From Reyranella sp. (GTDB lineage Bacteria; Pseudomonadota; Alphaproteobacteria; Reyranellales; Reyranellaceae), in the NCBI RefSeq assembly GCF_965229815.1, contig NZ_CBDDJN010000002.1, forward strand, positions 1,741,562-1,805,561: a stretch of DNA of 64,000 nt, in the 5' to 3' direction. Under the pieces are notes generated by a model. That model saw only the letters and a program-made list of their open reading frames with translations. It was not told the DNA's origin and made no database searches. Below, piece by piece: positions 1-39,616 of this stretch. Each line of letters opens with the position of its first letter. Position 1 is the first letter of the stretch. A program made the position numbers and the translations under genes.

Positions 1-93
1 ACACGGTTCGACAAGCTCGCCCGAAACTATCTTGCCGCCGTCCTGCTCGCTTCCACCAGACTATGGCTTCGAACTTATGAGTCCACGACCTAG
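1..93 (+). mobile_element. IS5-family transposase C-terminus and right end of the element (truncated by window edge)
   Basis: Frame 1 reads [30 protein letters not shown], matching the IS5-family C-terminal signature (TRYDKLA.N(F/Y).A). It ends in ...TATGAGTCCACGACCTAG, an IS5-type terminus ending at CTAG. Confidence 0.85.
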
Positions 94-431
94 CCCGAGG
101 CGGCCGGTGACCGAGGGCCAAGGAGAATGACGGCGGTGCCCGCGAGGCAAAGGGCTGCCCCGATCATGTCCCAGCGATCGGGCCGCACGCCCTCCGCCAG
201 CCACAGCCAGATCAGGGCGGCGACGATATAGATGCCGCCATAGGCCGCGTAGCTGCGGCCGGCGTGCGCAACGTCGACCAGGGTGAGGAACCAGGCGAAC
301 AGGGCCAGGGACACCATGCCCGGCGCCAGCCACCAGGCCGACTTGCCCATCCGCAGCCACGCCCAGAACGTGAAGCATCCGGCAATCTCCGCGACCGCGG
401 CGCCGACGAAGGCGGCAAGTGACAGATTCAT
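90..431 (-). CDS. ynfA: YnfA/UPF0060 family small multidrug-resistance-like membrane protein
   Basis: 113 aa with four TM helices; motifs AEIAGC..W.WLR and [11 protein letters not shown], and W..EG.RPDRWD.IG. Confidence 0.92.
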
Positions 432-536
432 GCGATGGACTCCAGGGCGAAGGGCGATTCGCTCTCGACCCTATCAGACGGTGGGGAGGGCGGGTGGAGG
501 GATCGCGGCCCTGTTGGGCGGCGATCTCGATCTAGC

Positions 537-862
537 TCAGAGCGTAGCTGCCGGCTTGGTCCACATCGAAGTCGCACGTGTGAAGTTCATGAATCTCCCA
601 ACGCTGATCCGCATCCGAGGCTTCGCTGCCTCGGCCTCATTGAAGAGGCAAGTATGGCCTTAACAAAATGTTAAGAGGGGAACCATCTGAGGCTCCGCTG
701 CCTCGGATTCATTGAAGGAACCGATAGAGATTGTCGAGCAGGCGGCGCGTGACCCTATCCGAGGCCGTTGCAGCTTCGATCCCATGGAATCTCCGTCTTT
801 TGCCGACAGAGTGGCGACCCTTCGGTCGACCATCGAGACCTCGCATCCCGGTCTCTGCGACG
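537..862 (+). CRISPR. Degenerate orphan CRISPR mini-array with type I-G (I-U)-like repeat, about 5 repeats and 4 spacers
   Basis: Best repeat is 611-645, GCATCCGAGGCTTCGCTGCCTCGGCCTCATTGAAG (7-bp stem CCGAGGC/GCCTCGG, 3' CTCATTGAAG). The copy at 683-717 matches 30/35. Decayed copies lie at 755-790 (about 24/36), 829-862 (about 23 matches, two gaps) and 537-571 (14 of the last 20 nt). Repeat 3' ends fall at 571, 645, 717, 790 and 862 (period 72-74), with unique 37-39 nt spacers. Confidence 0.65.
660..674. promoter_or_regulatory. CtrA-binding consensus TTAA-N7-TTAA
   Basis: TTAA CAAAATG TTAA at 660-674 is an exact match to the established alphaproteobacterial CtrA box. It lies inside the 646-682 spacer. 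Confidence 0.55.
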
Positions 863-1023
863 GGCGTGACTGCACTGCAGTCATCAACATGTTGCGATTC
901 GGGGCCCGTCACGCTCTAGCCTTGGCCGTTCCCGGAGCCCAAAAAGTCGCAATAAAATGACCCTGCCTCTGGCGTCTGAGCACATCCCTTGAAATGAACT
1001 ATTACCCAAGTTATATTCCGGTC

Positions 1024-1548
1024 ATGACCGCCCAAGGCCGCCCCACCCTCTACGACCCCGAGCTCTGCGAGCCGGCGCACAACTACTGCCTGCTGGGTGC
1101 GACCAACGACGATCTGGCGGAATTCTTCGGCGTATCGCCCAGCACCATCGACAACTGGATCGCGCGCCATGCCGAATTCGGCGACGCGGTGCGGCGCGGT
1201 CGCGTCGTGGCCGACGCGCGGGTGGCGCGCGCGCTCTACGACCGCGCCGTTGGATTCGAGCGGCCAGTGGAGCGGCCAGTGGAGCGGCCAGTGGAGCGGT
1301 CCGTGATCGCGGGTGACGCGAAGACGGTCACGACCACGGTCTACTATCCGCCCAGCGTGGCGGCCTGCATCTTCTGGCTGCGTCACCGTCAGCGCAGCTC
1401 CTGGAGTGAATCCAGCCAGCTGGCGAAGGGCAGGGCGGTCGACGACCCCGCGGCGTTCGCCGATGACGACATCGCGCGGCTCGAGGCGGCAAGCGAGAGG
1501 GCGCGCCGCGGCGGCGAGGGCGCTGTCGGGGCAAGTGCCGGCGATTGA
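1024..1548 (+). CDS. Phage terminase small-subunit-like helix-turn-helix protein (orphan)
   Basis: GRPTLYDPE..A..YCLLGATNDDLAEFFGVSPSTIDNW..RH.EF..AVRRGR..AD..VARALYDRAVG resembles HTH-type small terminases. The start could be 994 or 1024. Confidence 0.6.
   Translation: MTAQGRPTLYDPELCEPAHNYCLLGATNDDLAEFFGVSPSTIDNWIARHAEFGDAVRRGRVVADARVARALYDRAVGFERPVERPVERPVERSVIAGDAKTVTTTVYYPPSVAACIFWLRHRQRSSWSESSQLAKGRAVDDPAAFADDDIARLEAASERARRGGEGAVGASAGD
1258..1299 (+). repeat. In-frame 12-bp tandem repeat (GAGCGGCCAGTG x3.5) encoding ERPV x3
   Basis: Exact units at 1258, 1270 and 1282, plus a partial unit at 1294. Confidence 0.95.
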
Positions 1549-1600
1549 GAGGCGGGCGCTCGCGCATCCGTCGATGCGCGCCGTATCGGGCGTCGCCGGC

Positions 1601-2599
1601 CTACGCCGCGCTGGCGTAGATCCGGTCGAGGTCGCCGTCGTCGTAGGCGTACTCGGTCGAGCAGAACTCGCACTTCACCGCGACGCGGCCCGACGGGTCG
1701 CGCATGTCGTCCAGCTCCTCGCGGCGGATCGCGCGCAGCACGCGGTCGATGCGCTCGCGGCTGCAGCGGCAGCGCGCGGCGAAGGGGCGGGGCGCGAAGC
1801 GGCGCGGCTGCTCGGCATGGAACAGCCGGTGCAGGAGGACCTCGCCCGGCAGGCCGGGATCGAGCATCTCGGCCTCGGTCGCCGAGGCCATCAGGATCAC
1901 CGCCTTGCGCCAGTCGTCCTCGCGCTGCTCCTGGTCGATGTCGAGGCGGCCGGCGTCGAACTCCGGCATCTGCTGCACCATCAGCGCGGCGGCCCGCCAG
2001 TGGCCGGCGCCGTCGGCGTCGACCGTGTGCTGCGCGGCGATCTTGATGCCGGTCGGCAGCTGCTCGGACTGGCGGAAATAGGTATGGGCGCAGTCGGCCA
2101 GGGTCGCGCCCTCGAGCGGCACGACGCCCTGGTAGCGCTCGGTGTGCTGGCCCTGGTCGACGGTGAAGGAGAGCCGCCCGCGGCCGAACAGGCGCGGCAC
2201 GTAGGCGTCCGGCGCCTCGCCCGCATGCAGCGGCTTGTCGCCGCCCTCGCCCAGCGCCACCGCCAGCTTCCAGGAATCGAACTGGGCGTAGCCGCGCAGG
2301 GCGCCGTCGCTGGTGAGGTCGGTGACGAGGAGGCGGACCGGCCCGTCGCCCGAGATCTGCAGGGTGAAGATGCCGTCGTACTTGAGCGAGGTGGCGAGCG
2401 CCGTGCACAGCGTCATCGCCTCCGCGAGCGGCCGCGCCACGGCCAGCGGATAGCCGTGGCGCTCGATCACCGCGTCGAGCGAGCGGCCGAGCCGCACCAG
2501 ACGCCCGCGCACGCCCAGCGCGTCGAGCTGGAACGGCAGCGCCTGGTCCCCTTCCGGCTTGTCGGCGTCGGAAGAGCGGAAGCCTTCCGACGATCCCAT
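1601..2599 (-). CDS. hslO: Hsp33 redox-regulated chaperone
   Basis: LPFQL...VRGRLVRL N-terminus; zinc motif CRCS...CEFC. The ATG at 2599 overlaps the argF stop (ATGA). Confidence 0.93.
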   Translation of the reverse strand: MGSSEGFRSSDADKPEGDQALPFQLDALGVRGRLVRLGRSLDAVIERHGYPLAVARPLAEAMTLCTALATSLKYDGIFTLQISGDGPVRLLVTDLTSDGALRGYAQFDSWKLAVALGEGGDKPLHAGEAPDAYVPRLFGRGRLSFTVDQGQHTERYQGVVPLEGATLADCAHTYFRQSEQLPTGIKIAAQHTVDADGAGHWRAAALMVQQMPEFDAGRLDIDQEQREDDWRKAVILMASATEAEMLDPGLPGEVLLHRLFHAEQPRRFAPRPFAARCRCSRERIDRVLRAIRREELDDMRDPSGRVAVKCEFCSTEYAYDDGDLDRIYASAA

Positions 2600-3525
2600 C
2601 AGGAAAGGCACCAGGCCAGGATGCTCTTCTGCGCGTGCAGGCGGTTCTCCGCCTCGTCGAACACGACCGACTGCGGCCCGTCGATGACGTCGGTCGTCAC
2701 CTCCTCGCCGCGATGGGCGGGCAGGCAATGCATGAAGATGGCGTCGGGCTTGGCCTGCTTCATCAGCCGGTCATCGACCTGGTACCCGCGCAGGAGGTTG
2801 TGGCGGCGCGCGGCGCTCGGGCTGTGCGGGTCCTCGTCGCCCATCGACACCCAGGTGTCGGTGACGACGCAGTCGGCGCCCTTCACGATCGATTCGGGAT
2901 CGTGGCCGATCGTGATGCGACCCTGCGACTTCGACGCCCAGTCGACCACGTCGGCCGGTGGCTTGAGCTCGGGCGGGCAGGCGACGCGCAGTTCGAAGTC
3001 GAACTGCACGGCGGCATGGATCCAGCTCGTCGCCATGTTGTTGCCGTCGCCCGACCAGGCGATCGACTTGCCCCGGATGGGACCGCGATGCTCCTCGTAG
3101 GTCATCACGTCGGCCATGAGCTGGCAGGGATGGGTCTTGTCGGTCAGGCCGTTGATGACCGGCACCGTCGCGTACTTCGCCATCTCGAGGAGCTTCTCCT
3201 CGACCGTCGTGCGCATCATGATGATGTCGACGTAGCGGCTGAGCACGCGCGCGGTGTCGGCGATCGTCTCGCCGCGGCCGAGCTGGGTGTCGGTGCGGCC
3301 GAGCATGATCGTCTGGCCGCCGAGCTCGCGCATGCCGACCTCGAACGACACGCGGGTGCGGGTCGAGGGCTTCTCGAAGATCATCGCGAGCGTCTTGCCG
3401 GCGAGCGGCTTGTCGTGCCCGCCGTTCGCCCGCGCCTTCTTCATCGCCTTGCCGTGATCCAGGATCTGGCGAAGCGTTTGCGGATCGACCTGGTCGAGGT
3501 CGAGGAAATGCTTGGGAACCGCCAT
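2599..3525 (-). CDS. argF: Ornithine carbamoyltransferase
   Basis: [20 protein letters not shown] and FMHCLPA motifs. Confidence 0.97.
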
Positions 3526-3528
3526 GGC

Positions 3529-4731
3529 CTACTCGGCGGCCTTGGTGGCACCCTGAGCCTCGGCCTCGAACGACTGCGCCGCCTTCTCGAGGATCGACAC
3601 GCCCTCGTCGAGGGCGGCCTTGTCGGCGATCAGCGCCGGGAAGACGCGGATCACGTTTTCCCCGGCGATCGGCACGAGCATGCCGAACGACATCAGCCGG
3701 TCGACCATGTCGCCGGCCGGCACGACGCAGCGCAGCCCCTGCAGGAAGCCGGTGCCGCGCGCCTCGGCGAAGACCTTGGGATGCTTCTTCACCAGCGCCT
3801 GGAGCTGTCCCTTGAGATACTCGCCGCGCTGGTGGACGCCGTCGAGGAAGCCCGGCTTCGTGATCTCGTCGAGCACCGCATTGGCCACGCCGGTGGCGAG
3901 CGGATTGCCGCCGTAGGTCGAGCCGTGCGTGCCCGGCACCATGCCGACGGCCGCCTTCTCGGTCGCCATGAAGGCGCCGATCGGGAAGCCGCCGCCCATG
4001 CCCTTGGCCACCGCCATGACGTCGGGCGCCACGCCCGACCATTCGTAGGCGAAGAGCTTGCCGGTGCGGCCGAAGCCGGTGTGGATCTCGTCGTAGAACA
4101 GCAGCAGGCCGAACTCGTCGCAGATCGCGCGCAGCGCCTTCAGGAAGTCGGTCGTGGTCTCGCGCACGCCGCCCTCGCCCTGGATCGGCTCGACCAGGAT
4201 GCCGGCCGTCTCGTCGTCGACCATGTCGCGCACGACGTTGGCGTTGTTCAGCGGCGCGTGGCGGTAACCCGCCGCCGGCGGGCCGAAGCCCTCCAGGTAC
4301 TTCTCGTTGCCGGTCGCCGCCAGCGCGTTCAGCAGCCGGCCGTGGAAGGCCGCCTGGAAGCAGATGATCTTGTAGCGCTTGGGCTTGCCGTTCACGTACT
4401 GGTACTTGCGGATCAGCTTGATGCCGCCCTCGATCGCCTCCGCGCCGGAATTGCAGAAGAACATCGTGTCGGCGAAGGTGAGCTCGGTGAGCCGCGTCGC
4501 CAGCTTCTCGCCGTTGCCGATCCGGTAGAGGTTCGACGTGTGCCAGAGCTTCTGGCCCTGCTCGGTCAGCGCCTTGACCAGGGCGGGATGGCAGTGGCCC
4601 AGCGCGTTCACGGCGATGCCGGACGTGAAGTCGAGAAAACGTCGGCCGTCCGTCGCGTAGAGATAGTTGCCCTCTCCGCGTTCGAACACGACGTCCTTGC
4701 GACCGTACGTCGGCATCACAGCCGTAATCAC
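3529..4731 (-). CDS. argD: Acetylornithine aminotransferase
   Basis: Class III PLP aminotransferase with FHGR, EPIQGEGG, DEIHTGFGRTG, AKGMGGGFPIG and HGSTYGGNP. GTG start with AGGAGG SD. Confidence 0.95.
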   Translation of the reverse strand: MITAVMPTYGRKDVVFERGEGNYLYATDGRRFLDFTSGIAVNALGHCHPALVKALTEQGQKLWHTSNLYRIGNGEKLATRLTELTFADTMFFCNSGAEAIEGGIKLIRKYQYVNGKPKRYKIICFQAAFHGRLLNALAATGNEKYLEGFGPPAAGYRHAPLNNANVVRDMVDDETAGILVEPIQGEGGVRETTTDFLKALRAICDEFGLLLFYDEIHTGFGRTGKLFAYEWSGVAPDVMAVAKGMGGGFPIGAFMATEKAAVGMVPGTHGSTYGGNPLATGVANAVLDEITKPGFLDGVHQRGEYLKGQLQALVKKHPKVFAEARGTGFLQGLRCVVPAGDMVDRLMSFGMLVPIAGENVIRVFPALIADKAALDEGVSILEKAAQSFEAEAQGATKAAE

Positions 4732-4812
4732 GGGGAACCTCCTGCAAAAGAAAACACCCTGCTTCGGGACCGCGGCGCCGGAACGGACAGACCGGGTCGA
4801 GCAGGGTCGGGC

Positions 4813-4841
4813 ACTATCTTATCCGCGTCCGGGTGTGTCAA
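4813..4841 (-). promoter_or_regulatory. Putative sigma70 promoter for argD-argF-hslO
   Basis: Minus strand reads TTGACA-N17-GATAGT, about 80 nt upstream of the argD start. Confidence 0.55.
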
Positions 4842-4864
4842 CGTGGCCCATCTGCTCGCTCTCG

Positions 4865-4970
4865 CTCATGCTCCTCTCCCCCGTCAGGGGGAGAGGTTGG
4901 GTGAGGGGGCCTGCTCCGTTGTCGCCCCCCTCACCTTGCCTCTCCCCCTAGCGGGGGAGAGGAACATGAG
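4865..4970. repeat. REP/MITE-like palindromic intergenic repeat, copy 1
   Basis: CTCATG...CATGAG termini enclose two CTCTCCCCC/GGGGGAGAG hairpins. It is an inverted near-copy of 23936-24043. Confidence 0.85.
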
Positions 4971-4989
4971 ATAGGAGACCCGCCTTCCG

Positions 4990-6732
4990 ATGACCGCCAC
5001 GCCGACCCGCAACGCCACGCTGGCTCTCAGGCGCGCCGATTTCCGATCGGTGCCGGAGATGCTCGGCTACGCCGCGCGCGGCGACACCGGTGTTACCTTT
5101 TATAGTGTCAGGGGCGAGATTCTCTCGACCCTCGCATGGCGCGACGTCGAGACGCGCGCGCAGGCGGTGGCGCGTCGGCTGATCGGCGCCGGCTTCCAGC
5201 GCGGCGAGCGCATCCTGGTGACGGCCGATACCTGGCCGGGCTTCTTCGACCTGTTCTTCGGCGCCCAGCATGCCGGCCTGCTGCCGGTGCCGGTCTCGGT
5301 GCCCGCCGGCATCGGCGGCAAGGACGCCTATGTCGAGCAGCTTCGCCGCCAGCTCAGCGCCTCGGGCGCGGTGGCCGCGATCGCCATCGACGAGCTGCGC
5401 GACTTCCTGCTCGAGGCGGCGCGCGACCTGCCGGCGGTGCGGCTGGCCGGCGGCATGGACGTCATCGAGGCGTTGCCCGATGCGGCCGTGGAGCTGCGGC
5501 CGCTCGGCCCCGACGAGCTCTGCTACATCCAGTTCTCCTCGGGCAGCACGCGCCATCCGCACGGCGTGCAGATCACCCAGGCGGCGCTGATGGCCAATCT
5601 CGCGGGCATCACCGGACCGGCAGGACTCGACGTCGTGGCCGGCGACCGCGCCGTGAGCTGGCTGCCGCTCTATCACGACATGGGACTGATCGGCTTCCTG
5701 ATGGCGCCGCTCAGCTGCCAGCTTTCGATCGACTATCTGACGCCGCGCGACTTCGCCCGGCGGCCGGCGCAGTGGCTGAACATCATCTCGCAAAATCGCG
5801 GCAGCATCGCCTACAGCCCGAGCTTCGGCTACGACCTCGCGGTCCGCCGCGGCGCCAGGCAGGCGCCGGACGATCTCGACCTGTCGAGCTGGCGCCATGC
5901 CGGCATCGGCGGCGACATGATCCGGCCCGACGTGCTCCAGCGCTTCGCCGAGACCTTCGCCGGCGCGGGCTTCGACCGCGGCGCCTTCATCCCGAGCTAC
6001 GGCATGGCCGAGGTCTGCCTCGCCATCACCTTCAGCCCGCACGGCACCGGCGTGCGCACCGACACGGTCGACCGCACCGCGCTGGCGCAGGAGCAGCGCG
6101 CCGTGCCGGCCGGCGACGCCGCCGACGAGCAGCGTGCCCGCCGCTTCGTGCTGTGCGGCCGCGTGCTGCCCGGCCATCGGCTCGAGGTCCGCGGCGCCGA
6201 CGGCGCGGTGCTGGCCGACCGCGCGGTGGGCCGCATCTTCGTGCAGGGGCCCAGCATCATGCCGGGCTACTTCGGCGCGCCCGAGGCCAGCGCCGAGGTC
6301 CTGTCGGCCGACGGCTGGCTCGACACCGGCGACCTCGGCTACACGCTGGCGGGCGAGATCGTCGTCACCGGCCGCGCCAAGGACCTCATCATCGTCAACG
6401 GCCGCAATGTCTGGCCGCAGGACATCGAATGGGCCATCGAGGCGCGCCGCGTCGTCAAGGGCGGCGATTCCGCGGCCTTCTCGGTCGATACCGGCGAGGG
6501 CGAGCGCGTCGTGGTGGCGGTGCTGGCGCGCGTGTCGGGCGACACGGCGCGCGAGGCGCTGGCCCGCGACGTTGCCGGCGTCGTGCGCGAAAGCGTCGCC
6601 GTCGACTGCGACGTCGTCCTGGTGCCGCCGTCGATGGGCCTGCCGACCACCTCCTCGGGCAAGCTCTCGCGCTCGCGCGCCAAGGCCAACTACCTGGCCG
6701 GCCTCTATGCCCCGAAGACGGCGGCGGCGTGA
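4990..6732 (+). CDS. Fatty acyl-AMP ligase / acyl-ACP synthetase of the sphingolipid cluster
   Basis: 580 aa adenylate-forming enzyme with YIQFSSGST, SWLPLYHDMGLIG, YGMAE, GWLDTGDLG and PTTSSGKLSR. Confidence 0.9.
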   Translation: MTATPTRNATLALRRADFRSVPEMLGYAARGDTGVTFYSVRGEILSTLAWRDVETRAQAVARRLIGAGFQRGERILVTADTWPGFFDLFFGAQHAGLLPVPVSVPAGIGGKDAYVEQLRRQLSASGAVAAIAIDELRDFLLEAARDLPAVRLAGGMDVIEALPDAAVELRPLGPDELCYIQFSSGSTRHPHGVQITQAALMANLAGITGPAGLDVVAGDRAVSWLPLYHDMGLIGFLMAPLSCQLSIDYLTPRDFARRPAQWLNIISQNRGSIAYSPSFGYDLAVRRGARQAPDDLDLSSWRHAGIGGDMIRPDVLQRFAETFAGAGFDRGAFIPSYGMAEVCLAITFSPHGTGVRTDTVDRTALAQEQRAVPAGDAADEQRARRFVLCGRVLPGHRLEVRGADGAVLADRAVGRIFVQGPSIMPGYFGAPEASAEVLSADGWLDTGDLGYTLAGEIVVTGRAKDLIIVNGRNVWPQDIEWAIEARRVVKGGDSAAFSVDTGEGERVVVAVLARVSGDTAREALARDVAGVVRESVAVDCDVVLVPPSMGLPTTSSGKLSRSRAKANYLAGLYAPKTAAA

Positions 6733-8310: not shown

Positions 8311-9537
8311 ATGGGCTTGTTCGACCGACACGCCGGCCTGCTCGAGGCCTACCGCGACGTCCGGACCACCGGCTACGACCCGTTCCAGATCCGCATGGAG
8401 CGGGTCCTGTCGCCGACCGAGGCGATCATCAACGGCCGCAAGACGCTGCTGGTCGGGACGAACAATTATTTCGGCCTGACCTTCGACCCGTCCTGCATGG
8501 AAGCGGCGATCGAGGCGATTCGCGCCGAGGGCACCGGCACGACCGGCTCGCGCATCGCCAACGGCTCCTACAGCGAGCACGTCGCGCTCGAGAAGGAGAT
8601 CGCCGAGTTCTACGGCAAGAAGCACTGCATGGTGTTCACCACCGGCTACCAGGCCAATCTCGGGGTGATCGCCACGCTGGGCGGCGAGGGCGACTTCCTG
8701 CTGATCGACGCCGACAGCCACGCCTCGATCTACGACGCCTGCAAGATGACCCAGGCCGAGGTCGTGCGCTTCAAGCACAACGACCCGTCGAGCCTGGAGG
8801 CGCGCCTGCGCCGCCTTGGTGATCGGCCGGGCAACCGCATCGTCGTGCTCGAGGGCATCTACTCGATGCTGGGCGACAGCGCGCCGCTCGTCGAGTTCAT
8901 CGACGTCTGCAAGAAGTACGGCGCCTACGTGCTGATCGACGAGGCCCATTCGCTGGGCGCCTTGGGCGATCACGGCCGCGGCCTCTGCGAGAAGGCGGGC
9001 GTGCTCGACGACTGCCACTTCATCGTCGGCACCTTCTCCAAGACGCTGGGCGCCATCGGCGGCTACTGCGTCTCGGACGATCCCGACTTCGACATCCTGC
9101 GCGTCACCGTCCGCTCCTACATGTTCACGGCGTCGCTGCCGCCCTCGATCGTCGCCTCGGTGCGCCAGGCGCTGCGGGTCGTGAAGGCACGGCCCGAGCT
9201 TCGCACGCAGCTCTGGGACAATGTCGCCACGCTCTACGACGGTCTGAAGGCGCGCGGCTTCACGCTCGGTCCCGAGCACGGCCCGGTGGTCGGCGTGCAC
9301 CTGCCCGACCGCACCACGGCCATCGGCTTCTGGCGGGCGATGCTGGACGCCGGCATCTACGTCAACGTCGCGGTGCCGCCGGCCACGCCCAACGGCGTGT
9401 CCCTGCTGCGCTGCTCGCTCTGCGCCGTGCACACGCGCGAGCAGCTCGAGCACATGGTCGAGGTCATGACCGGGATCGCCCGGCAGTTCGGCGTCCTTCC
9501 CACCGAGCCCCAGCTGCGCGCCGCCGGCGCCCGCTGA
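8311..9537 (+). CDS. spt: Serine palmitoyltransferase (alpha-oxoamine synthase family)
   Basis: GTNNYFGLT, GTGTTGSRIANG, DEAHSLG and PLP-lysine motif GTFSK (SPT-type). Flanked by ACP and other ceramide genes. Confidence 0.85.
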   Translation: MGLFDRHAGLLEAYRDVRTTGYDPFQIRMERVLSPTEAIINGRKTLLVGTNNYFGLTFDPSCMEAAIEAIRAEGTGTTGSRIANGSYSEHVALEKEIAEFYGKKHCMVFTTGYQANLGVIATLGGEGDFLLIDADSHASIYDACKMTQAEVVRFKHNDPSSLEARLRRLGDRPGNRIVVLEGIYSMLGDSAPLVEFIDVCKKYGAYVLIDEAHSLGALGDHGRGLCEKAGVLDDCHFIVGTFSKTLGAIGGYCVSDDPDFDILRVTVRSYMFTASLPPSIVASVRQALRVVKARPELRTQLWDNVATLYDGLKARGFTLGPEHGPVVGVHLPDRTTAIGFWRAMLDAGIYVNVAVPPATPNGVSLLRCSLCAVHTREQLEHMVEVMTGIARQFGVLPTEPQLRAAGAR

Positions 9538-26895: not shown

Positions 26896-27077
26896 CGCGT
26901 CGCGCTTGCCGTTGATGCGACTCATGTGTTCTGGTCTGTCACCCGAGAGCAGTCATCTGCGTTGATCGGCCACCGAGCGACGTCGTCGTTCAGTGGACAA
27001 GTCCGGGGATGCTCTCATCCCTGCGCCATAATGTTGCCGCATGCGCACGCAACCTCGAACGGACCGGGGAGTTACGG

Positions 27078-30000
27078 ATGGATGCTGACGATACTCCGGT
27101 CCGCGGACGCGCTGGCCGATCCAAGAAGAAGGCGGTGAAGTCGAAGGCCCACGCGGCCAAGGCACCGTCTGTCCTCTACTGTGTCCAGCGTGGCGCGGGT
27201 TCACAGTCGGCCGCGAAGCAATGGCCGAGCAGGATCGATGCCGCCGCCGATCTCGGCGCGGACCAGCTCTGCTTCAATCCGTTCCTGCTGAGCGGCGACG
27301 ATCCGATGCTGATCGCCGACTTCATGCGCGCCGATCCCGCGCTCGGCCTCGCGGGCTCGGCCGACGACGCCGTGCGCGAGCTGGCGGCCCTCTGCAAGAA
27401 GCGCGACATGGCGCTCTGCGTCGATCTCGTGCTCGATCGCGTGGCGCTGGATGGCGCCGCCATGGGACAGGTCGAGGGCCTTTTCCAGGCGCTTCACCAG
27501 AGCGAGATCATCGACCCGCGGCTCGACCCGTCGATCGCCCGCAGCGCCGTGCTGAGGCCAGGCTGCGTCGACGCGCTCGCCGCCTGGTGGGGCGAGCGTC
27601 TGGCGCGCCTCGTCGATGCCGGCGCCGCGAGCTTCCGCCTGCTCGGGCTCGAGCTGCTGCCGCCGGGTGCTGTCGCCGCCGTCGTCGCGGCGGCGCGCCG
27701 GCGCGCGACCTGCTCGTTCCTCGCCTGGACCCCGGGACTGTCGTGGATCCGGCATCGCGAGCTGGCGGCCGCCGGCGTCGACGCGGTGTTCGCCTCGACG
27801 GCGTGGTGGGACGGCATCGCCGACTGGTACGTCGAGGAGCTCGATTCGCTCTGCCGCACCGCGCCGGTGATCGGCACGGTGCAGCGCGCGCCCAGCGAGG
27901 TTTCCTCCGACATCGCCGCGCGCCGCCGGGCCCTGCAACTGGCAGCCGGCACGACCGATGGGCTGTTCCTGGCCGAAGGAATCGAGGCGGGGCTGGAGCC
28001 CGACTTCCGCGCGTCCATCGGCCGGCTGCGCGACAGAAGCTCGGATCGGCGCATGATGGCGGCGCGCCGGCTCACCGGCTCGGCGTCCCGTGTCACGGCG
28101 GTGGCACGGCTCGACGCCGTCGATCCCCGCAGCGCCTCGCTGGGCCGCGTCGTGCTGGTAAACACCGATGGCGAGCGGCGTCGGCCGGTGCCGGTCAGCC
28201 TCGATCCGATCGATCCCGCGGCCGGCGCCGTTCTCGGCGACCCGCGCCTGGCGGACGGCGGTATGGTCCCCGAATTCCTGGAGCCCGGCGAGGTGCTGAT
28301 GGTCGATGTGAAGCCGTGCCAGGCCGTGCGCGATCCCGAGGCTCCGCCGGTTTCGGCGGCAACGACGCTCTCGCCGGTGGTCATCGACCGCGTCGCCCCG
28401 AACGTCGGCGAGGGACTCGCGGTGCGGCGCGTCGTCGGCCGTTCCATCACGGTCGAGGCCGACATCTTCGCCGACGGCCACGACCTGCTGGCGGCCGAGC
28501 TCCTGTGGCGGGCCGTCGACGAGACGGAATGGCAGCGCGCGCCCATGGTGCCGCTGGCCAACGATCGCTGGCGCGGCAGCATGATCGGCCGCCGCGTCGG
28601 ACGGCACGTCTTCACCATCGAGGCGTGGCGCGACGACTACGGCTCGCTCGCACATGCGCTGGAGGTCAAGCACGCGGCCGGCGTCGACGTGTCGGTCGAC
28701 ATGGCCGACGCGGTCGCCCACCTGAAGGAACTGAAGCTCGACGGTCCGCTGAAGGCACTGGCCGCGGCGGAAGGCGAGGCGCGGGTCCACGTGCTCACAT
28801 CGGCGGAGACCCGCCGCGCGGTGGCCGCCCGCGACGCGCGCGTGCGCGCCTGCCGGCATCCCGAGATCATCATCGAGATCGAGCGTCCGCAGGCCGCCTT
28901 CGCCAGCTGGTACGAGCTCTTTCCCCGCTCGCTCGGCACCTTCGACGACGTGATCGCCCACCTGCCGCGGGTCCGCGAGATGGGCTTCGACGTCCTGTAC
29001 TTCCCGCCGATCCATCCGATCGGCACGACCAACCGGAAGGGCCGGAACAACGTCCTCAAGGCGGCACCGGGCGATCCCGGCAGCCCCTATGCGATCGGTG
29101 CGGCCGACGGCGGCCACGACGCGATCCACGCCGAGCTCGGCTCGCCCGAGGATTTCCGCCGCCTGGTCGCGGCCGCGGCCGCACAGGGGCTGGAGATCGC
29201 GCTGGACTTCGCGATCCAGTGCTCGCCCGACCATCCGTGGCTGAAGCAGCATCCGGGCTGGTTCAAGCGCCGCTCCGACGGCACGATCCGCTTCGCCGAG
29301 AATCCGCCCAAGAAGTACGAGGACATCGTCAACGTCGACTTCTACGCGGATGCGGCGGTGCCCGATCTGTGGCTCGCGCTGCGCGACGTGGTCCTGCACT
29401 GGATCGGCGAGGGCGTCCGCATCTTCCGCGTCGACAACCCTCACACCAAGCCGCTGCCCTTCTGGGAGTGGATGATCGCCGACGTGCGCCGGCAGCATCC
29501 CGAGGCGATCTTCCTCGCCGAGGCCTTCACGCGGCCGGCGATGATGTACCGGCTCGGAAAGATCGGCTTCTCGCAGTCCTACACCTACTTCACCTGGCGC
29601 AACTACAAGGGCGAGCTGACGGACTATCTGCGCGAGCTCGCGGCGCCCCCGGCGGCCGACTTCTACCGGCCGCACTTCTTCGTCAACACGCCCGACATCA
29701 ACCCGTACTTCCTGCAGAGCTCGGGCCGAGCAGGCTTCCTGATCCGGGCGGTGCTGGCGGCGACCCTCTCGGGCCTGTGGGGCGTCTACTCCGGGTTCGA
29801 GATCTGCGAGGCGGCGGCGCTGCCGGGGCGCGAGGAATATCTCGATTCGGAGAAGTACGAGGCGCGGCGCCGCGACTTCGCCCAGTCCGGCAACATCGTC
29901 GGCGAGATCACCATGCTCAACCGCCTTCGACGCCTGCATCCGGCGCTGCAGAGCCATCTCGGCGTCACCTTCTACAATGCCTTCAACGACCAGGTGTTGG

Positions 30001-30256
30001 TCTACGGCAAGGCAACGCCAGGCAGCGAGCGGCAGGACATGATCCTGGTGGCCGTCAGCCTCGATCCGCACAATGCGCAGGAAGCCGATTTCGAGGTTCC
30101 CCTGTGGGAGTGGCAGATGCCCGATGACGGAACGGTCGAGGTCGAGGACCTGGTGCACGGCAACCGCTTTTCCTGGCACGGCAAGGTCCAGCACATCCGG
30201 CTCGACCCGGGGATGCCCTTCGCCATCTTCCGCCTCGCCCCTCCCGGAGCCCTGTG

Positions 30257-30257
<1 letters not shown>
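27078..30257 (+). CDS. glgE: Alpha-1,4-glucan:maltose-1-phosphate maltosyltransferase with long N-terminal extension
   Basis: C-terminal half has DUF3416 plus GH13_3 motifs WYELFPRS, FPPIHPIG, FRVDNPH, LAEAF and NTPDI. An extra N-terminal region of about 430 aa precedes them. Confidence 0.92.
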
Positions 30258-33543
<3,286 letters not shown>

Positions 33544-33547
<4 letters not shown>

Positions 33548-35736
33548 GCGACATGACGCCCCCCCGGCTCGATCGCGGCGAGGTCGAGGCGCTGATGACG
33601 GCGCGCCACCGCGATTCCTTCAGCGTGCTGGGACCGCACGACGGCCCCGACGGCCGCATGATCCGCGCCTATCTGCCCGGCGCACGGCTCGTCGAGGTGC
33701 TGCGGCGCGGCGACGGGGCGAGCCTCGGCAGGCTGGCGGAAGTCGAACCCGGCCTGTTCGAGGGACCGGTGGCCGATGCCTCGCCCTACCGGCTGCGCGT
33801 CGAGTGGCCGGGGGCCGTGCAGGAGACGGAGGATCCCTATTCGTTCGGCCCGCTGCTGGGCGAGCTCGACCTTCACCTGTTCAACGAGGGGCGGCACTTC
33901 GACCTTGCCAGCGCGCTCGGCGCCAACGTCGCCACGATCGACGGCGTGACCGGCGTGCGCTTCGCGGTGTGGGCGCCCAATGCCGAGCGAGTCGCGGTGG
34001 TCGGGGACTTCAATTCGTGGGACGCCCGCCGCAATCCGATGCGCCTGCGCTATCCCTCCGGCATCTGGGAGCTGTTCGTGCCGCGGATCGGCGCGGGCGT
34101 GCGCTACAAGTTCGACATCATGGGGCCCGGCGGCGTGCGCCAGACCGAGAAGGCCGATCCGGTCGCCCAGCAGGCCGAGATGGCGCCCGGCACGGCCTCG
34201 GTGGTGGCGTCGCCGCGCGGCTTCCAGTGGACCGACGAGGCATGGATGGCGGGGCGGGGGCGGCGCCAGGCGCCCGACGCGCCGATCTCGATCTACGAGG
34301 TCCATATCGGCTCTTGGCTGCGCCAGAACGAGGCCGCCCACGGCTCGCTGTGGGACCTCGCGACCGAGCGCCTTATCCCCTATGTCCGCCAGCTCGGCTT
34401 CACCCATGTCGAGCTGCTGCCGGTCACCGAGCATCCATTCGGCGGCTCGTGGGGCTACCAGCCGCTCGGCCTGTTCGCGCCCTCGGCGCGCTACGGCTCG
34501 CCGGAATCGTTCGCGCGGTTCGTCGACGCGCTGCATGCCAACGGCATCGCCCTGCTGCTCGACTGGGTGCCGGCCCACTTCCCCACCGATCCGCACGGGC
34601 TCGCCCGTTTTGACGGCACGGCGCTATACGAGCATCTCGACCCGCGCGAAGGCTTCCATCGCGACTGGAACACCTTCATCTACAATTTCGGTCGGCGCGA
34701 GGTGCAGGGCTTCCTGATCGCGAGCGCGCTCCACTGGCTCGAGCGCTTCCACGTCGACGGCCTGCGGGTCGACGCCGTGGCCTCGATGCTCTACCGCGAC
34801 TACAGCCGCCCGGCCGACGGCTGGGTCCCCAACGTCTATGGCGGTCGCGAGAATCTCGAGGCGGTGGGCTTCCTGCGCCATCTCAATGCCGTGGTCGGCG
34901 AACGCTGCCCCGGCGCCATCGTCGTGGCCGAGGAATCGACGGCCTGGCCGGGAGTGACGGCGTTGCAGCCGGACGGGCTCGGCTTCTCGTACAAGTGGAA
35001 CATGGGCTGGATGCACGACACGCTCCACTACATGGAACGCGAGCCGGTCTATCGCGCCTACCACCACGACGGCATGACGTTCGGCCTGGTCTATGCGTTC
35101 TCCGAGAAGTTCATCCTCCCGATCTCTCACGACGAGGTCGTGCACGGAAAAGGCTCGCTGCTCGGCAAGATGCCGGGCGACCGCTGGCAGAAGTTCGCCA
35201 ACCTGCGCGCCTATCTCGGCTTCATGTGGACGCATCCGGGCAAGAAGCTGCTCTTCATGGGCTGCGAGATCGCCCAGCCCCAGGAGTGGAACCACGATGC
35301 CGAGATCGCCTGGCCGCTGCTCGAGGATCCGGCCCATGCCGGCATGCAGCGGCTGGTCGGCGACCTCAATCGCCTCTATGCCGACGAGAAGGCGCTGCAC
35401 CGACGCGACGCCGTGCCCGAGGGCTTCCGCTGGCTGATCGGCGACGATCGCGCAAACTCGGTCTTCGCCTACCTGCGCCTCGGCGAGGAGGGGGATCCGC
35501 CCATTCTGGTCGTCTGCAACATGACGCCGGTACCGCGCCACGGCTACCGGATCGGCGTGCCGAAGCCGGGCCGCTGGCGCGAGGTCGGCAACACCGATTC
35601 GCGCTTCTACGGCGGCAGCGACATGGGGAACGGCGGCGGCGCCGAGAGCCTCGACGAGCCCGCGCACGGCCACGCCCAGTCGCTCCTGCTGACCCTGCCG
35701 CCCCTCTCGACGATCATGCTGAAGGCGGAGACCTGA
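33544..35736 (+). CDS. glgB: 1,4-alpha-glucan branching enzyme
   Basis: [29 protein letters not shown] and [12 protein letters not shown]. Confidence 0.96.
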
Positions 35737-35738
35737 CG

Positions 35739-37849
<2,111 letters not shown>

Positions 37850-37853
<4 letters not shown>

Positions 37854-39616
37854 CCCGCTTCGCGCGCGACCTGCCCTTCGGCGCGACGGTGCTGGCGCCT
37901 GACCGCACGCGGTTCCGGCTGTGGGCACCGGCCCAGAGCCGGGTCGTTCTCGACATCGAGGGACGCGAGCCGATCGCCATGGCCGGCGACGGCGCCGGCT
38001 GGTTCGAGGCCGAGGCAGCGTGCGGGGCGGGGGCCCGCTACCGCTTCCGGCTGGAGGACGGGCTGGCCGTTCCGGATCCGGCGGCGCGGGCGCAGGACAT
38101 CGACGTCCACGACCCCAGCCTGGTCGTCGATCCCGCTTCCTATACCTGGCGGAACCCGCACTGGCGCGGGCGTCCCTGGCCCCAGACGGTGCTTTACGAG
38201 CTGCATCCCGGCGCGATGGGCGGCTTCGCCGGGATCGAGGCTCGTCTGCCGGAGCTGGCCGACCTCGGCGTCACGGCGGTGGAGCTGATGCCGATCGCGG
38301 ACTTCCCCGGAAAAAGGAACTGGGGCTACGACGGGGTGCTGCCGTTCGCGCCGGACCGCGCCTACGGCACGCCCGACGCGCTGAAGTCGCTGATCGACAC
38401 CGCCCACGGGCTCGGCCTGATGGTCTTCCTCGATGTCGTCTACAATCACTTCGGACCGGACGGGAACTACCTCTCGGCCTACGCCCCGGCCTTCTTCCGC
38501 GACGACGTACCGACCCCGTGGGGCACGGCGATCGACTTCCGCCGGCCCGAGGTACGGCGGTTCTTCACCGAGAACGCGCTGTACTGGCTGATGGAGTACC
38601 GCTTCGACGGCCTGCGGCTGGACGCCGTGCATGCCATCGCCACGCCCGACTGGCTGGACGAGATGGCGGCGACGGTGCGCGGCACGGTCGAGCCCGGCCG
38701 CGAGGTCCATCTCGTGCTGGAGCACGACGCCAACATCGCCGATCATCTGCGCGGCGACTTCGACGCCCAGTGGAACGACGACGCCCACCATGTGCTGCAT
38801 GTGCTGCTGACCGGCGAGAGCGACGGCTACTATTCCGACTATGCCGACCGGCCGGCCGAGCGGCTGGCGCGCTGCCTCGCCGAGGGCTTCGTCTATCAGG
38901 GCGAGGCGTCGGCCTACCGCAAGGGCGAGCATCGCGGCACGCCCAGCGCGGACCTGCCGCCAACGACCTTCGTGCTGTTCCTGCAGAACCACGACCAGAT
39001 CGGCAACCGGCCGTTCGGCGACCGGCTCGCCGCCTCGGTCGATCCGCAGGCGCTGGAGGCGGCCGTGGCCTTGCAGCTCCTCTGCCCGCAGATCCCGCTG
39101 ATCTTCATGGGCGAGGAGGGGGCGAGCCGCACGCCGTTCCTCTATTTCACCGATCATCACGGCGCGCTCGCCGACGCGGTGCGCGAGGGACGGCGCCGCG
39201 AGTTCGCGGGCTTCACCGGCTTCCGCGCGGGAGAGGGGACGGCCGCCATTCCCGATCCCAATGCCGCCGCAACCTTCGAGGACAGCCGGCCGGTTGCCGC
39301 AGACGAAGGCCGCCGGACGCTCTACCGCCGGCTGCTCGCGCTGCGCGCCGAGCGGATCGTGCCGGGCCTCGCCGGTGCGCGGTCGCTGGGCGCCTCGGCC
39401 TGCGGGCCAGCGGCGGTCGCGGCCGGCTGGCGGCTGGGCGATGGCGCCGTGCTGACGCTGCTGACCAATCTCGGGACGGCGCCGTGCAGCGTGCCTCCTC
39501 CCGAAGGCGAGTTGCTGTTCGAGTCGCGCGCCGGTCTCGGCGCGGCGGCGGCGCAGGGAAGCCTCGGGCCGAGGGCGACGGTCGCCTTCCTGCGGCCGCG
39601 GGCCGAGCCGGCATGA
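37850..39616 (+). CDS. treZ: Malto-oligosyltrehalose trehalohydrolase
   Basis: FRLWAP, RNWGYDGV, DVVYNHFGPDGNYL, GLRLDAVH and QNHDQIGNR. Confidence 0.95.

Follow-up and report, generated by a model that had tools for sequence, protein, structure and literature searches.

A probable relic of a type I-G CRISPR array in a cas-less segment next to hslO in Reyranella

Introduction

In the closest known type I-G (formerly I-U) CRISPR arrays, 35-36 nt repeats, each with a 7-bp G+C-rich stem, a CCTC linker and a handle of 8 nt, ATTGAAG(C), alternate with unique 36-nt spacers at a 72-nt period, the terminal repeat being degenerate in its 3′ half. In the type I-G system of Thioalkalivibrio sulfidiphilus, the Cas5-Cas6 fusion protein Csb2 requires only the hairpin and cuts 4 nt beyond it, giving the 8-nt handle (PMC9638904). 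All these features of the arrays, together with their strand logic, recur at a short locus within the window, by which we mean the whole 64-kb stretch of Reyranella DNA analysed here. The locus departs from the arrays in that just three repeats are supported, the leader motif is missing and no cas gene lies within 66 kb; its second repeat is mutated at invariant positions, and the loop TTCGCT was seen in no other retrieved array.

Degenerate repeats as leftovers of a lost CRISPR-cas locus have a precedent in Francisella, where genomes negative for the type V-A system retain a degenerate repeat and a standalone repeat unit (Shmakov et al. 2023, PMC10120712); that remnant is conserved and has been proposed to serve recapture or regulation (PMC10120712). 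The present locus resembles it in its few degenerate repeats at a cas-less site, in its rearrangement-prone intergenic setting, and in being present in one lineage and missing from a close relative. The Francisella remnant is conserved, whereas here neither conservation nor a cas-positive relative with an array at the site was found.

CreA of the CreTA modules and the Cas-regulating CreR RNAs have reportedly been described by Li et al. in 2021 and Liu et al. in 2023, and Racr RNAs, which are RNA anti-CRISPRs, by Camara-Wilpert et al. in 2023. CreA and CreR elements are found within cas operons or next to them, with a pseudo-spacer partially complementary to a promoter in the vicinity. Like them, the locus takes the form of a mini-array in which one spacer-like sequence is framed by a good repeat and a degenerate one, but no cas operon lies within 66 kb, the 64 kb contain no partial target, and the locus is absent from L122, the sole close relative found and as such a very small sample. 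Standalone repeat-like regulators have been surveyed as a class (PMC10120712).

Mini-CRISPR arrays are also borne by viruses (Medvedeva et al. 2019, PMC6858448). Like these and the Racr RNAs, the locus has repeats of the host type around one or two spacers, lies apart from cas genes and adjoins a phage-type gene, here resembling the terminase small subunit gene terS. Viral mini-arrays and Racr RNAs sit on intact viruses or plasmids with a promoter or leader-like sequence, whereas the element here appears gutted, and homologous terS loci never have the repeats. The spacers of viral mini-arrays match related viruses; those described below had no target in the collections searched.

Results

Two stretches of the window, 612-645 and 684-717, are clear direct repeats, 88% identical and 72 nt apart. 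The first lies in unit U2 (611-646, + strand), whose layout is GCAT-CCGAGGC-TTCGCT-GCCTCGG-CCTC-ATTGAAGA, in which a stem of 7 bp is followed by a 4-nt linker and a handle of 8 nt; it is predicted to fold at -14.1 kcal/mol (z = -2.4). The stem, the CCTC linker, the 8-nt ATTGAAGC handle and a length of 35-37 nt are features of the I-G family. At all conserved positions but the last, U2 agrees with the consensus of arrays found beside I-G cas genes; its final base, an A, occurs in 2 of 1,666 genuine repeats. Searches with a 29-nt core in which 21 bases were specified revealed arrays in more than 100 genomes; these reach 93 copies in a stretch of 8 kb and adjoin genes for Cas4g/Cas1g, Cas3g, Cas8g1/Csx17 and Cas7g. 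Because the same core forms arrays beside I-G cas genes elsewhere, 611-646 is a canonical type I-G CRISPR repeat, and the type proposed in an earlier sequence-only reading of this DNA was upheld. The comparison with repeat models suggested there gave a concordant result: Rfam CRISPR-DR16 (RF01330) recognised 611-645 with 29.1 bits and an E value of 1e-4, below its gathering score of 35, while Rfam at gathering thresholds returned nothing in the 64-kb window. I-G arrays with a nearly identical repeat are present in two Reyranella metagenome-assembled genomes (MAGs). The loop variant TTCGCT itself is private to this locus among the arrays retrieved. An intact array with this repeat had been named as worth seeking; the loop variant had no exact match in metagenome contigs, and no live array with this loop was present among the at least 119 genome loci listed.

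A weight matrix derived from 40 genuine repeat variants was used to score 127,930 positions on both strands of the window. U2 ranked first (score 42.9) and U3, a damaged repeat at 683-718 (+), ranked second (25.8), with no further copies of this type on either strand. Over the 34 nt they have in common, U3 differs from U2 at four positions, by a C to T change in the stem, a T to C change in the loop and a change from CC to AT in the linker. The stem substitution leaves a G-U pair, and the change in the linker makes the stem 9 bp long; the handle of 8 nt, ATTGAAGG, is undamaged, and the predicted fold reaches -15.0 kcal/mol. The positions altered in the stem and linker read CC in 1,658 and 1,660 of the 1,666 genuine repeats, among which a linker AT never occurs.

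The sequence-only reading had described the stems correctly, both for the best unit, with its 7 bp, and for the following two units, with their G-U pairs. The selection on the RNA fold that it drew from the G-U pairs did not hold: the argument rests on two C-to-T transitions, and retention of G-U is uninformative because half of the transitions in a G-C pair give G-U. Since U3 is also altered at the near-invariant CC positions of genuine repeats, relaxed constraint is indicated rather than a selected fold.

U4 (755-790, +) resembles a terminal, trailer-end repeat. Its 5′ part, ATCCGAGGC, is intact (9/9), its 3′ arm is weakened and its handle is lost (CATGGAAT). Gapped alignment supports the unit with P = 0.0005; by the matrix it ranks 25th, and its position in register with U2 and U3 has P ~0.0025. 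The starts of the three units at 611, 683 and 755 define a 72-nt period, which fits the 71-76 nt of the I-G family. In genuine I-G arrays, the 5′ half of the terminal repeat is the better preserved in 15 of 19 cases, and the arrays stop abruptly past it.

The spacers are unique, as had been claimed, and measure 36-39 nt. S2 (647-682, +; 36 nt), which contains TTAACAAAATGTTAA, has a G+C content of 42% against 70% for the genome, and it is the sole spacer with a usable handle on one side and a usable hairpin on the other; S3 (719-754, +) is also 36 nt long. The stretch U2-S2-U3 keeps all the elements of I-G processing, namely the 7-bp hairpin and the 8-nt handle (PMC9638904), an observation that goes against a mere relic. 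One crRNA, with spacer 647-682, could form if a I-G system exists elsewhere in the genome.

Five units had originally been recognised, of which U2, U3 and U4 stand. The outermost unit on the left, proposed at 537-571, is marginal: U1 (537-572, +) is a possible fourth repeat, heavily degenerate, which matches the consensus at 9 of 12 positions of its linker and handle part (CCACATCGAAG), has lost the hairpin and forms no stable fold. It ranks 499th of 127,930 by the matrix, with an in-register P of ~0.03-0.05 and a gapped alignment P of 0.03, and is separated from U2 by a spacer-like sequence, S1 (573-610, +). The fifth unit, at 828-862, was rejected, with P values of 0.03 by gapped alignment and 0.27 by the matrix and a position inside a region 89% identical to the repeat-free L122; a recognisable second unit past a degenerate terminal repeat occurs in 3 of 43 genuine I-G arrays. 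The well-supported structure consists of three repeats and two spacers (611-790), possibly four repeats.

Changes at positions conserved in the family are absent from U2 apart from its variable last base, number three in U3, and amount to 10 or more in both U4 and U1. Decay of the units is very uneven, whereas uniform neutral decay from a single start predicts otherwise, which weighs against a relic; an age gradient toward the trailer fits the series from U2 to U4, but not a degenerate U1 upstream of an intact U2.

The earlier reading had proposed comparing the spacers with phages, plasmids and the host genome; our searches revealed no convincing target, judged by sequence matching, in phages, plasmids, the window or IMG/VR. 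For S2, the 64-kb window contained no match of at least 9 nt, and phages, plasmids and IMG/VR yielded none either. S1, for which no target was found, matches the window over at most 11 nt; for S3 the limit is 17 nt, including a mismatch. Both matches lie in G+C-rich sequence, and neither falls at the 5′ seed. The fetched loci and the phage collection contained no target of any spacer, and plasmid matches stayed at chance level (E at least 0.1). Look-ups of 20/21-mers of the three spacers in IMG/VR returned 0, 1 and 0 matches; the single one, a 20-nt exact match of S3 to a microvirus-like contig, stops at the 20-mer, and about 0.1 such matches are expected by chance per 20-mer.

The description of the locus as decayed and leaderless was borne out, with U3 altered at constrained positions and the family leader motif missing. 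Our reference was the stretch that precedes the first matching repeat in each of 46 I-G arrays; the motif ...CTCGAAAACG...GATTGCCTT...GGCTTGTAGGGTGGCT is present in most of them. This motif is absent from the 100 nt ahead of U2 and from the sequence before U1 as well; 573-610 was also considered as a leader and discarded, the motif leaving no trace there. A consensus scan, which is weak for alphaproteobacteria, detected no sigma-70-like promoter upstream of the units.

The statement that no cas genes lie nearby was likewise confirmed. Tblastn of the 64-kb window with I-G Cas3g, Cas3-extension, Cas4g-Cas1g, Cas8g, Cas7g and the Cas2-containing ORF gave nothing better than E = 0.035, and Pfam analysis of ~50 ORFs of the window revealed ordinary metabolism. 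No cas gene was found in the 2.3 kb to the left of the window either, which contain a membrane-protein gene, a 112-aa gene, an hslO fragment and an insertion sequence (IS) only; the search covered ~66 kb of a 2.2-Mb source contig. Among the best 120 of 7,862 Cas4g/Cas1g matches, a crowded list, none could be assigned to this contig.

The array lies in a composite segment. At the left edge of the window is the right end of an IS5-family element (1-96, +), comprising the C-terminus of its transposase (1-93; translation FDKLARNYL...RTYESTT*) and the right inverted repeat TTATGAGTCCACGACCTAGCCC. A sequence that continues the window leftward, L126, contains the DUF4096 orfA, orfB and the matching left inverted repeat. 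CTAG is duplicated on either side of the element, which has the look of a simple insertion and makes it an unlikely cause of the truncation of the array. The adjacent ynfA gene (90-431, -; UPF0060 membrane protein, Pfam PF02694, E 2e-34) is intact, with its stop codon inside the CTAG duplicated by the IS. Homologues of ynfA lie in unrelated contexts, and their likeness stops at the coding region, with no upstream conservation by which a left edge could be set.

To the right of the array, the region 797-1023 (+) represents the conserved upstream sequence and promoter of the terS-like gene. It includes 828-862, yet lies outside the array, and contains the palindrome GTGACTGCACTGCAGTCA at 866-883 and a promoter-like site, TTGAAA-17-TATATT, at 989-1017, which is the sole sigma-70-like site near the array and belongs to the terS-like gene. 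This solitary helix-turn-helix gene (1024-1548, +) encodes 174 aa from an ATG at 1024, matches PHROG 309, terminase small subunit (E 1e-36), and Pfam HTH_23, has homologues of at most 72% identity and contains a 12-nt tandem repeat at 1258-1299. The phage-like neighbour invoked earlier is this gene, but its setting is a chromosomal one, hslO-argF-argD, with no integrase and no other phage gene in its neighbourhood.

Next comes hslO (Hsp33; 1601-2728, -; Pfam PF01430), followed by argF and argD. The last ~150 nt of hslO are duplicated (91%) as a displaced fragment ~770 nt to the left of the window start, where the reverse complement of L126 at 1370-1521 aligns with 1596-1745 of the window. Between this 3′ fragment and the intact hslO lie the IS5 copy, ynfA, the remnant and the lone terS-like gene. 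Judged from gene order, an element that had integrated at the hslO 3′ end would leave such an hslO′ ... hslO arrangement.

Conservation of the locus in relatives, which the sequence-only reading had made a touchstone, was not found in a sample made up of a single close relative, covered over 2.4 kb, and a second assembly that is identical. In the former, L122, the C-terminus of hslO is 100% identical and the flanks are 84-92% identical, and the hslO′ stump runs directly into the terS-like cassette, with no array, ynfA or IS. Homology restarts 7-10 nt beyond U4, and identity from ~800 onward is 89%. L123, more distant and syntenic, differs in its upstream content. The region 797-1023 is partly conserved in L123-L125, and L122-L125 are all without a CRISPR repeat.

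A tie between the repeats and the terS-like cassette was considered and rejected. In 160 loci with terS homologues obtained by profile scan (1.18 Mb; 80 viral, 80 metagenomic), no I-G repeat was present and the best matrix score was 0.2. A single-sequence scan of IMG/VR with the cassette yielded nothing.

Discussion

We consider that the locus is probably a non-functional relic of the trailer end of a lost type I-G array, orphaned and decaying. A simple remnant array had been the fallback of the sequence-only reading, and it is the best-supported account; the locus is most likely a molecular fossil rather than a new regulator. The array lies on the + strand, and genuine loci in the same orientation have cas4g/cas1g-cas2-leader upstream. 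Here, deletion or rearrangement would have removed the cas operon together with the leader and the array's younger portion. The remnant sits in a variable segment, with the displaced hslO 3′ fragment on its left and the intact hslO on its right. With no known Csb2, leader promoter or adaptation genes, the repeats would no longer be maintained and would mutate at positions that are fixed in working arrays. Present activity is most likely none, or incidental transcription at most.

An unlikely alternative is that the orphan mini-array is still usable, a I-G system in trans deriving one working crRNA from U2-S2-U3 and perhaps a second from U3-S3-U4, which would confer immunity against a carrier of the S2 protospacer. 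A canonical U2 and the hairpin and handle kept by U3 are compatible with this reading, as are the sufficiency of the hairpin for I-G Csb2 (PMC9638904), the I-G arrays of the two Reyranella MAGs, and S2 being AT-rich relative to the genome, as expected of foreign DNA. Against it stand the lack of a leader and of a recognisable promoter, the failure to find a protospacer, and a U3 linker sequence that no genuine repeat has and that adjoins the cleavage site. The U2 loop variant was moreover absent from the metagenome scan and the genome loci listed, and no I-G cas gene was tied to the source genome.

Less probable still, and in our opinion improbable, is a retained core, handle-S2-hairpin, of the mini-array of an old element integrated at hslO, still loaded by a I-G system in trans. 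Selection would in that case have preserved only the parts of a single crRNA, leaving the central repeat intact between degenerate outer units, and the core would serve as a guide on its own against a competing element rich in AT, or as a decoy or regulator RNA.

The repurposed CRISPR-like RNA favoured by the sequence-only reading, that is, an RNA on a mobile element acting as a Racr-type decoy of I-G Cas proteins or as a CreA/CreR-type repressing guide, fared poorly and seems to us very improbable. The hslO′ ... hslO layout of a degraded integrated element and the adjoining terS-like gene speak for it, and an intact repeat between degenerate ones recalls standalone mini-arrays (PMC10120712). 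Solitary I-G repeats also occur on two IMG/VR contigs, and an orphan I-G mini-array is conserved in L055 and L067. However, unlike Cre elements, the locus adjoins no cas genes; the spacers offer no regulatory target in the 64 kb, S2 lacking even a 9-nt match and the others having short G+C-rich matches away from the seed. The array is missing from L122 and from the 160 terS-homologue loci, half of them viral, no promoter-like site lies upstream, and its decay affects constrained positions.

Finally, a non-CRISPR origin as a chance hairpin pair or a REP/MITE-type dispersed repeat, suggested by the fact that just two units are strongly alike and that array finders would miss them, can practically be dismissed, being ruled out by the cas-linked arrays of the same core and by the uniqueness of the units in 64 kb on both strands, which refutes a generic scattered REP family at window scale, and contradicted by the family-like 72-nt spacing and the independent Rfam match of U2.

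As a probable relic, the locus reveals no new mechanism, and it would gain greater weight only if U2-S2-U3 were expressed and Cas-loaded. It offers a worked example in which decayed CRISPR fragments, invisible to array finders, are typed via cas-linked arrays elsewhere, and in which comparison of the flanks with a near relative tells real units from look-alikes. The remnant would mark a former type I-G system in a lineage akin to Reyranella, and it singles out the hslO 3′ end as a place where elements integrate and erode. Similar debris exists in other genomes. Many other solitary I-G repeats have no cas gene in the surrounding 2.4-12.8 kb; at one further locus, a lone repeat lies amid fragments of Cas3g, Cas4g/Cas1g and the Cas2-containing ORF.

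Repeat units of the CRISPR remnant

The intergenic stretch 432-993 has a G+C content of 59%, versus 70% in the window, and a repeat search detected in it a single two-copy family (612-645 and 684-717, 88% identity, 72-nt spacing). Tandem Repeats Finder made no call at this site, nor did Rfam give a match there at gathering thresholds. The sequence-only reading had described five related units (U1-U5) as a decayed mini-array with type I-G-like repeats. With a weight matrix built from 40 distinct genuine repeat variants and ranked over 127,930 window positions, U2 (611-646) came first (in-register P ~0.0001), U3 (683-718) second (P ~0.0002), U4 (755-790) 25th (P ~0.0025) and U1 (537-572) 499th (P ~0.05). 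The claimed fifth unit, best placed at 826-861, ranked 3,101st and was not significant (P 0.27). Gapped alignment, compared with 20,000 random window 50-mers, gave P = 0.0005 for U4 and P = 0.03 for both U1 and the fifth unit, the positions one step outward of these last two being at background level. The fifth unit, originally set at 828-862, was rejected on its rank and on its location within a stretch 89% identical to the repeat-free L122, the closest relative found. Three of the five units are therefore supported, and U1 is questionable. No further copy of the full unit or of its 3' half occurs on either strand of the 64 kb, so the scattering expected of a REP-type family was not observed.

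U4 keeps ATCCGAGGC intact, with a weakened 3' arm and a lost handle. This is the look of trailer units in genuine I-G arrays: 19 of 43 readable trailers have one more recognisable unit past the last exact repeat, the 5' half being the better kept in 15 of these 19, and a second additional unit is present in only 3 of the 43. Given this terminal-unit appearance and the exclusion of the fifth unit, the supported structure is U2-S2-U3-S3-U4 (spacers S2, 647-682, and S3, 719-754), with U4 as the terminal repeat. The hairpin-less, questionable U1 and a spacer S1 (573-610) may precede U2.

Assignment to type I-G

Scanning the GTDB set, in which each species is represented by a single genome, for the core GAGGC-N4-8-GCCTCGG-NN-TCATTGAAG returned at least 119 stretches. 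Most of these are long arrays that repeat every 71-76 nt and reach 93 matches in 8 kb. Array hosts among the matches listed include Alphaproteobacteria (two Reyranella MAGs among them), Burkholderiales, Nitrospirales, Binatia and others. The conserved unit of the retrieved arrays is 35-36 nt long and reads GCATCCGAGGC-loop-GCCTCGGCCTCATTGAAG(C). Same-strand ORFs upstream of the arrays scored far over the curated NCBIfam cut-offs for I-G cas families: Cas4g/Cas1g (770-782 bits), Cas3g (602 bits), the I-G Cas3-extension protein (179 bits), Cas8g1/Csx17 (589 bits) and Cas7g (53 bits, cut-off 38). By tblastn, 55 loci among those listed carry Cas4g/Cas1g, mostly followed by a Cas2-like 72-aa match. 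Since I-G Cas families adjoin arrays of the same repeat, the repeat family is type I-G by direct association. In permissive mode, the Rfam family CRISPR-DR16 also gave a full-length match to 611-645, scoring 29.1 bits (E 1e-4) against a gathering threshold of 35. The anatomy of U2, GCAT / CCGAGGC / TTCGCT / GCCTCGG / CCTC | ATTGAAGA, agrees with the published biochemistry of the 36-nt type I-G repeat: the Cas6 domain of Csb2 binds its 7-bp hairpin, and cleavage 4 nt past the stem produces an 8-nt handle (PMC9638904). The type I-G assignment of the remnant is thus correct.

The reported lack of a leader and of nearby cas genes was confirmed. Alphaproteobacterial arrays display the upstream motif ...CTCGAAAACG...GATTGCCTT...GGCTTGTAGGGTGGCT, conserved in most of 46 readable arrays, and comparison with these 46 revealed no likeness to it ahead of U2 or U1. 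Searching the window by tblastn with I-G Cas3g, Cas3-extension, Cas4g/Cas1g (two versions), Cas8g, Cas7g and the Cas2-containing ORF gave nothing better than E = 0.035. An alphaproteobacterial Cas4g/Cas1g query yielded 7,862 matches and settles nothing, none of the best 120 being tied to the source contig. Pfam analysis of ~50 window ORFs identified arginine, polyamine, glycogen/trehalose, transport, tryptophan and pyrimidine genes, with no defence gene or prophage among them. The large glycogen/trehalose cluster at 27009-43898 (GlgE-like, TreS-like alpha-amylase fusion, CBM48 branching or debranching enzymes) is of ordinary chromosomal type and confirms the window to be chromosome, not mobile DNA.

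Genomic organization around hslO

L126, a 3.8-kb contig of another assembly, encodes the same YnfA as the window; its reverse complement matches window 1-1508 at 100% identity and reaches 2,289 nt further left. From left to right, the order is a membrane-protein gene, a 112-aa gene, a copy of the hslO 3' end, an IS5-family element, ynfA (90-431, minus strand), the CRISPR remnant, the HTH cassette, intact hslO (1601-2728, minus strand), argF and argD. The truncated hslO copy (152 nt, 91% identical to window 1596-1745) lies ~770 nt left of the window start, at 1370-1521 of the L126 reverse complement, and adjoins the 112-aa gene. The IS5-family element (~850 bp) covers window 1-96 and continues left in L126 (reverse complement 1535-2385); it contains orfA with DUF4096, orfB ending at window 93, and inverted repeats GGGCTAGGTTCTGTACTCATAA and TTATGAGTCCACGACCTAGCCC. 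CTAG is duplicated on both of its flanks, and the ynfA stop codon falls in this duplication.

L122, a 2.4-kb contig, shares the outer genes at 84-92% identity, its hslO C-terminus being 100% identical; it keeps only 19 nt of the displaced hslO end, and this stump runs directly into the HTH cassette. The IS, ynfA and the array are all absent from it, and its homology with the window resumes 7-10 nt past U4, with 89% identity from ~797 rightward. Parts of this stretch are also conserved upstream of homologous HTH genes in three further loci (L123-L125), and no CRISPR repeat is present in L122-L125. The more distant L123 keeps the order HTH-hslO-argF-argD, with a HigBA-like pair upstream. In the window, the displaced hslO end and intact hslO bracket the IS, ynfA, the CRISPR remnant and the HTH gene. 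Integration of an element into the 3' end of a gene leaves such a footprint, with the gene restored at one flank and its old end displaced to the other. The layout thus looks like the two ends of an old element that would have entered the hslO 3' end, and the window and L122 lineages appear to hold differently eroded remains of it.

The neighbour had been called phage-like, and indeed the 174-aa HTH protein (1024-1548, plus strand) is a small-terminase homologue (PHROG 309, E 1e-36). This terS-like gene is solitary, at a conserved position beside hslO-argF-argD. Its ORF is listed from 994, and the true start is probably the ATG at 1024, downstream of a promoter-like site (989-1017) just ahead of it. 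Homologues are shorter (150-155 aa), and a 155-aa paralogue is found on a record named Reyranella sp. The gene contains a 12-nt tandem repeat, GAGCGGCCAGTG x3.5, at 1258-1299 (ERPV repeats). The palindrome GTGACTGCACTGCAGTCATCAA (866-887) and the block GGAGCCCAAAAAGTCGCAAT (930-960) are conserved upstream of the terS-like genes in L122-L125, and 18 of the 160 homologous loci have the core GCACTGCAGT[CG]A on the same strand as the gene; this is probably an operator or packaging-related site of the gene family.

Origin and possible function of the remnant

The remnant is quite likely what is left of the trailer end of a type I-G locus since lost, within an eroded, rearrangement-prone segment at the hslO 3' end, and as such points to I-G immunity in the past of this lineage. 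However, its decay is strikingly uneven, with U2 near perfect and U1 and U4 heavily degraded. Increasing age toward the trailer accounts for the wear from U2 to U4 but not for the worn U1 upstream of U2.

The survival of the stem through G-U pairs had been taken as a sign that the fold may be under selection. Compared with U2, U3 has a C-to-T change in the stem (G-U kept), a T-to-C change in the loop and AT in place of CC in the linker, and the U4 stem has one G-U and one broken pair. Two of the three stem changes are wobble-preserving transitions, which equals chance expectation and removes the argument for selection. As the search pattern left several repeat positions free, variation there was measurable: of 1,666 genuine repeats, 1,658 have CC immediately before GAGGC, 1,660 have CC in the linker (none has AT) and only 2 end in A. 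The changes in U3 thus hit the very positions that stay constant in working repeats and indicate relaxed constraint. The loop variant of U2 and U3 was found on no contig of the metagenome collection.

It is unlikely that these units form an orphan array still served in trans by a I-G system elsewhere in the genome, although U2-S2-U3 still supplies handle, spacer and hairpin and could, given such a system, yield one crRNA. No sigma-70-like site was found upstream of the units, which is weak evidence in an alphaproteobacterium. The reading first preferred, a repurposed regulator (CreA/CreR) or anti-CRISPR RNA (Racr), is very improbable in view of the lack of an I-G repeat in the 160 terS-like homologue loci and of any meaningful spacer target in the collections searched. 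These loci, retrieved with a family profile (80 IMG/VR and 80 metagenomic, 1.18 Mb in all), gave a best matrix score of 0.2, compared with 42.9 for U2 and 25.8 for U3. Searched against 50,697 phage records, 72,556 plasmids, the retrieved loci and the window itself, the spacers gave no meaningful match. Exact 20/21-mer searches of IMG/VR gave one 20-nt match, between S3 (window 723-742) and the capsid gene of a microvirus-like contig (L289:716-735); unmatched in its flanks at both ends, it was rejected as a chance match, ~0.1 being expected per 20-mer.

Other orphan type I-G repeats

Orphan I-G repeats are common outside the window: more than 20 retrieved loci carry one to three I-G repeats with no cas gene within the 2.4-12.8 kb examined. 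L102, from another alphaproteobacterial genome, is a visibly decayed I-G locus that parallels the window relic, with a solitary repeat beside short Cas3g, Cas4g/Cas1g and Cas2-containing-ORF fragments (~4121-5027). Two MAGs, Acetobacteraceae JOPF217 (L055:5046-5152) and Alphaproteobacteria JOPF336 (L067:3109-3284), share an orthologous orphan mini-array with flanks ~90% identical and a homologous first spacer, L067 having one additional degenerate repeat and spacer; no I-G cas gene was found in the 6-8 kb examined. The gene just downstream encodes an N-terminus that we take, by eye, to be DUF433-like. This mini-array is a better candidate than the window locus for a retained or repurposed mini-array. 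From these cas-free repeats, L102 and the shared mini-array, the repeat family includes simple debris as well as mini-arrays that may have been retained. Virus-borne I-G mini-arrays may be present on two IMG/VR contigs of one sample: L120 carries a lone repeat whose loop is 8 nt long (2399-2440), and L121 (reverse complement 8348-8510) has a mini-array made up of a first unit with only the 3' handle part, a perfect second repeat and a third unit with only the 5' part.
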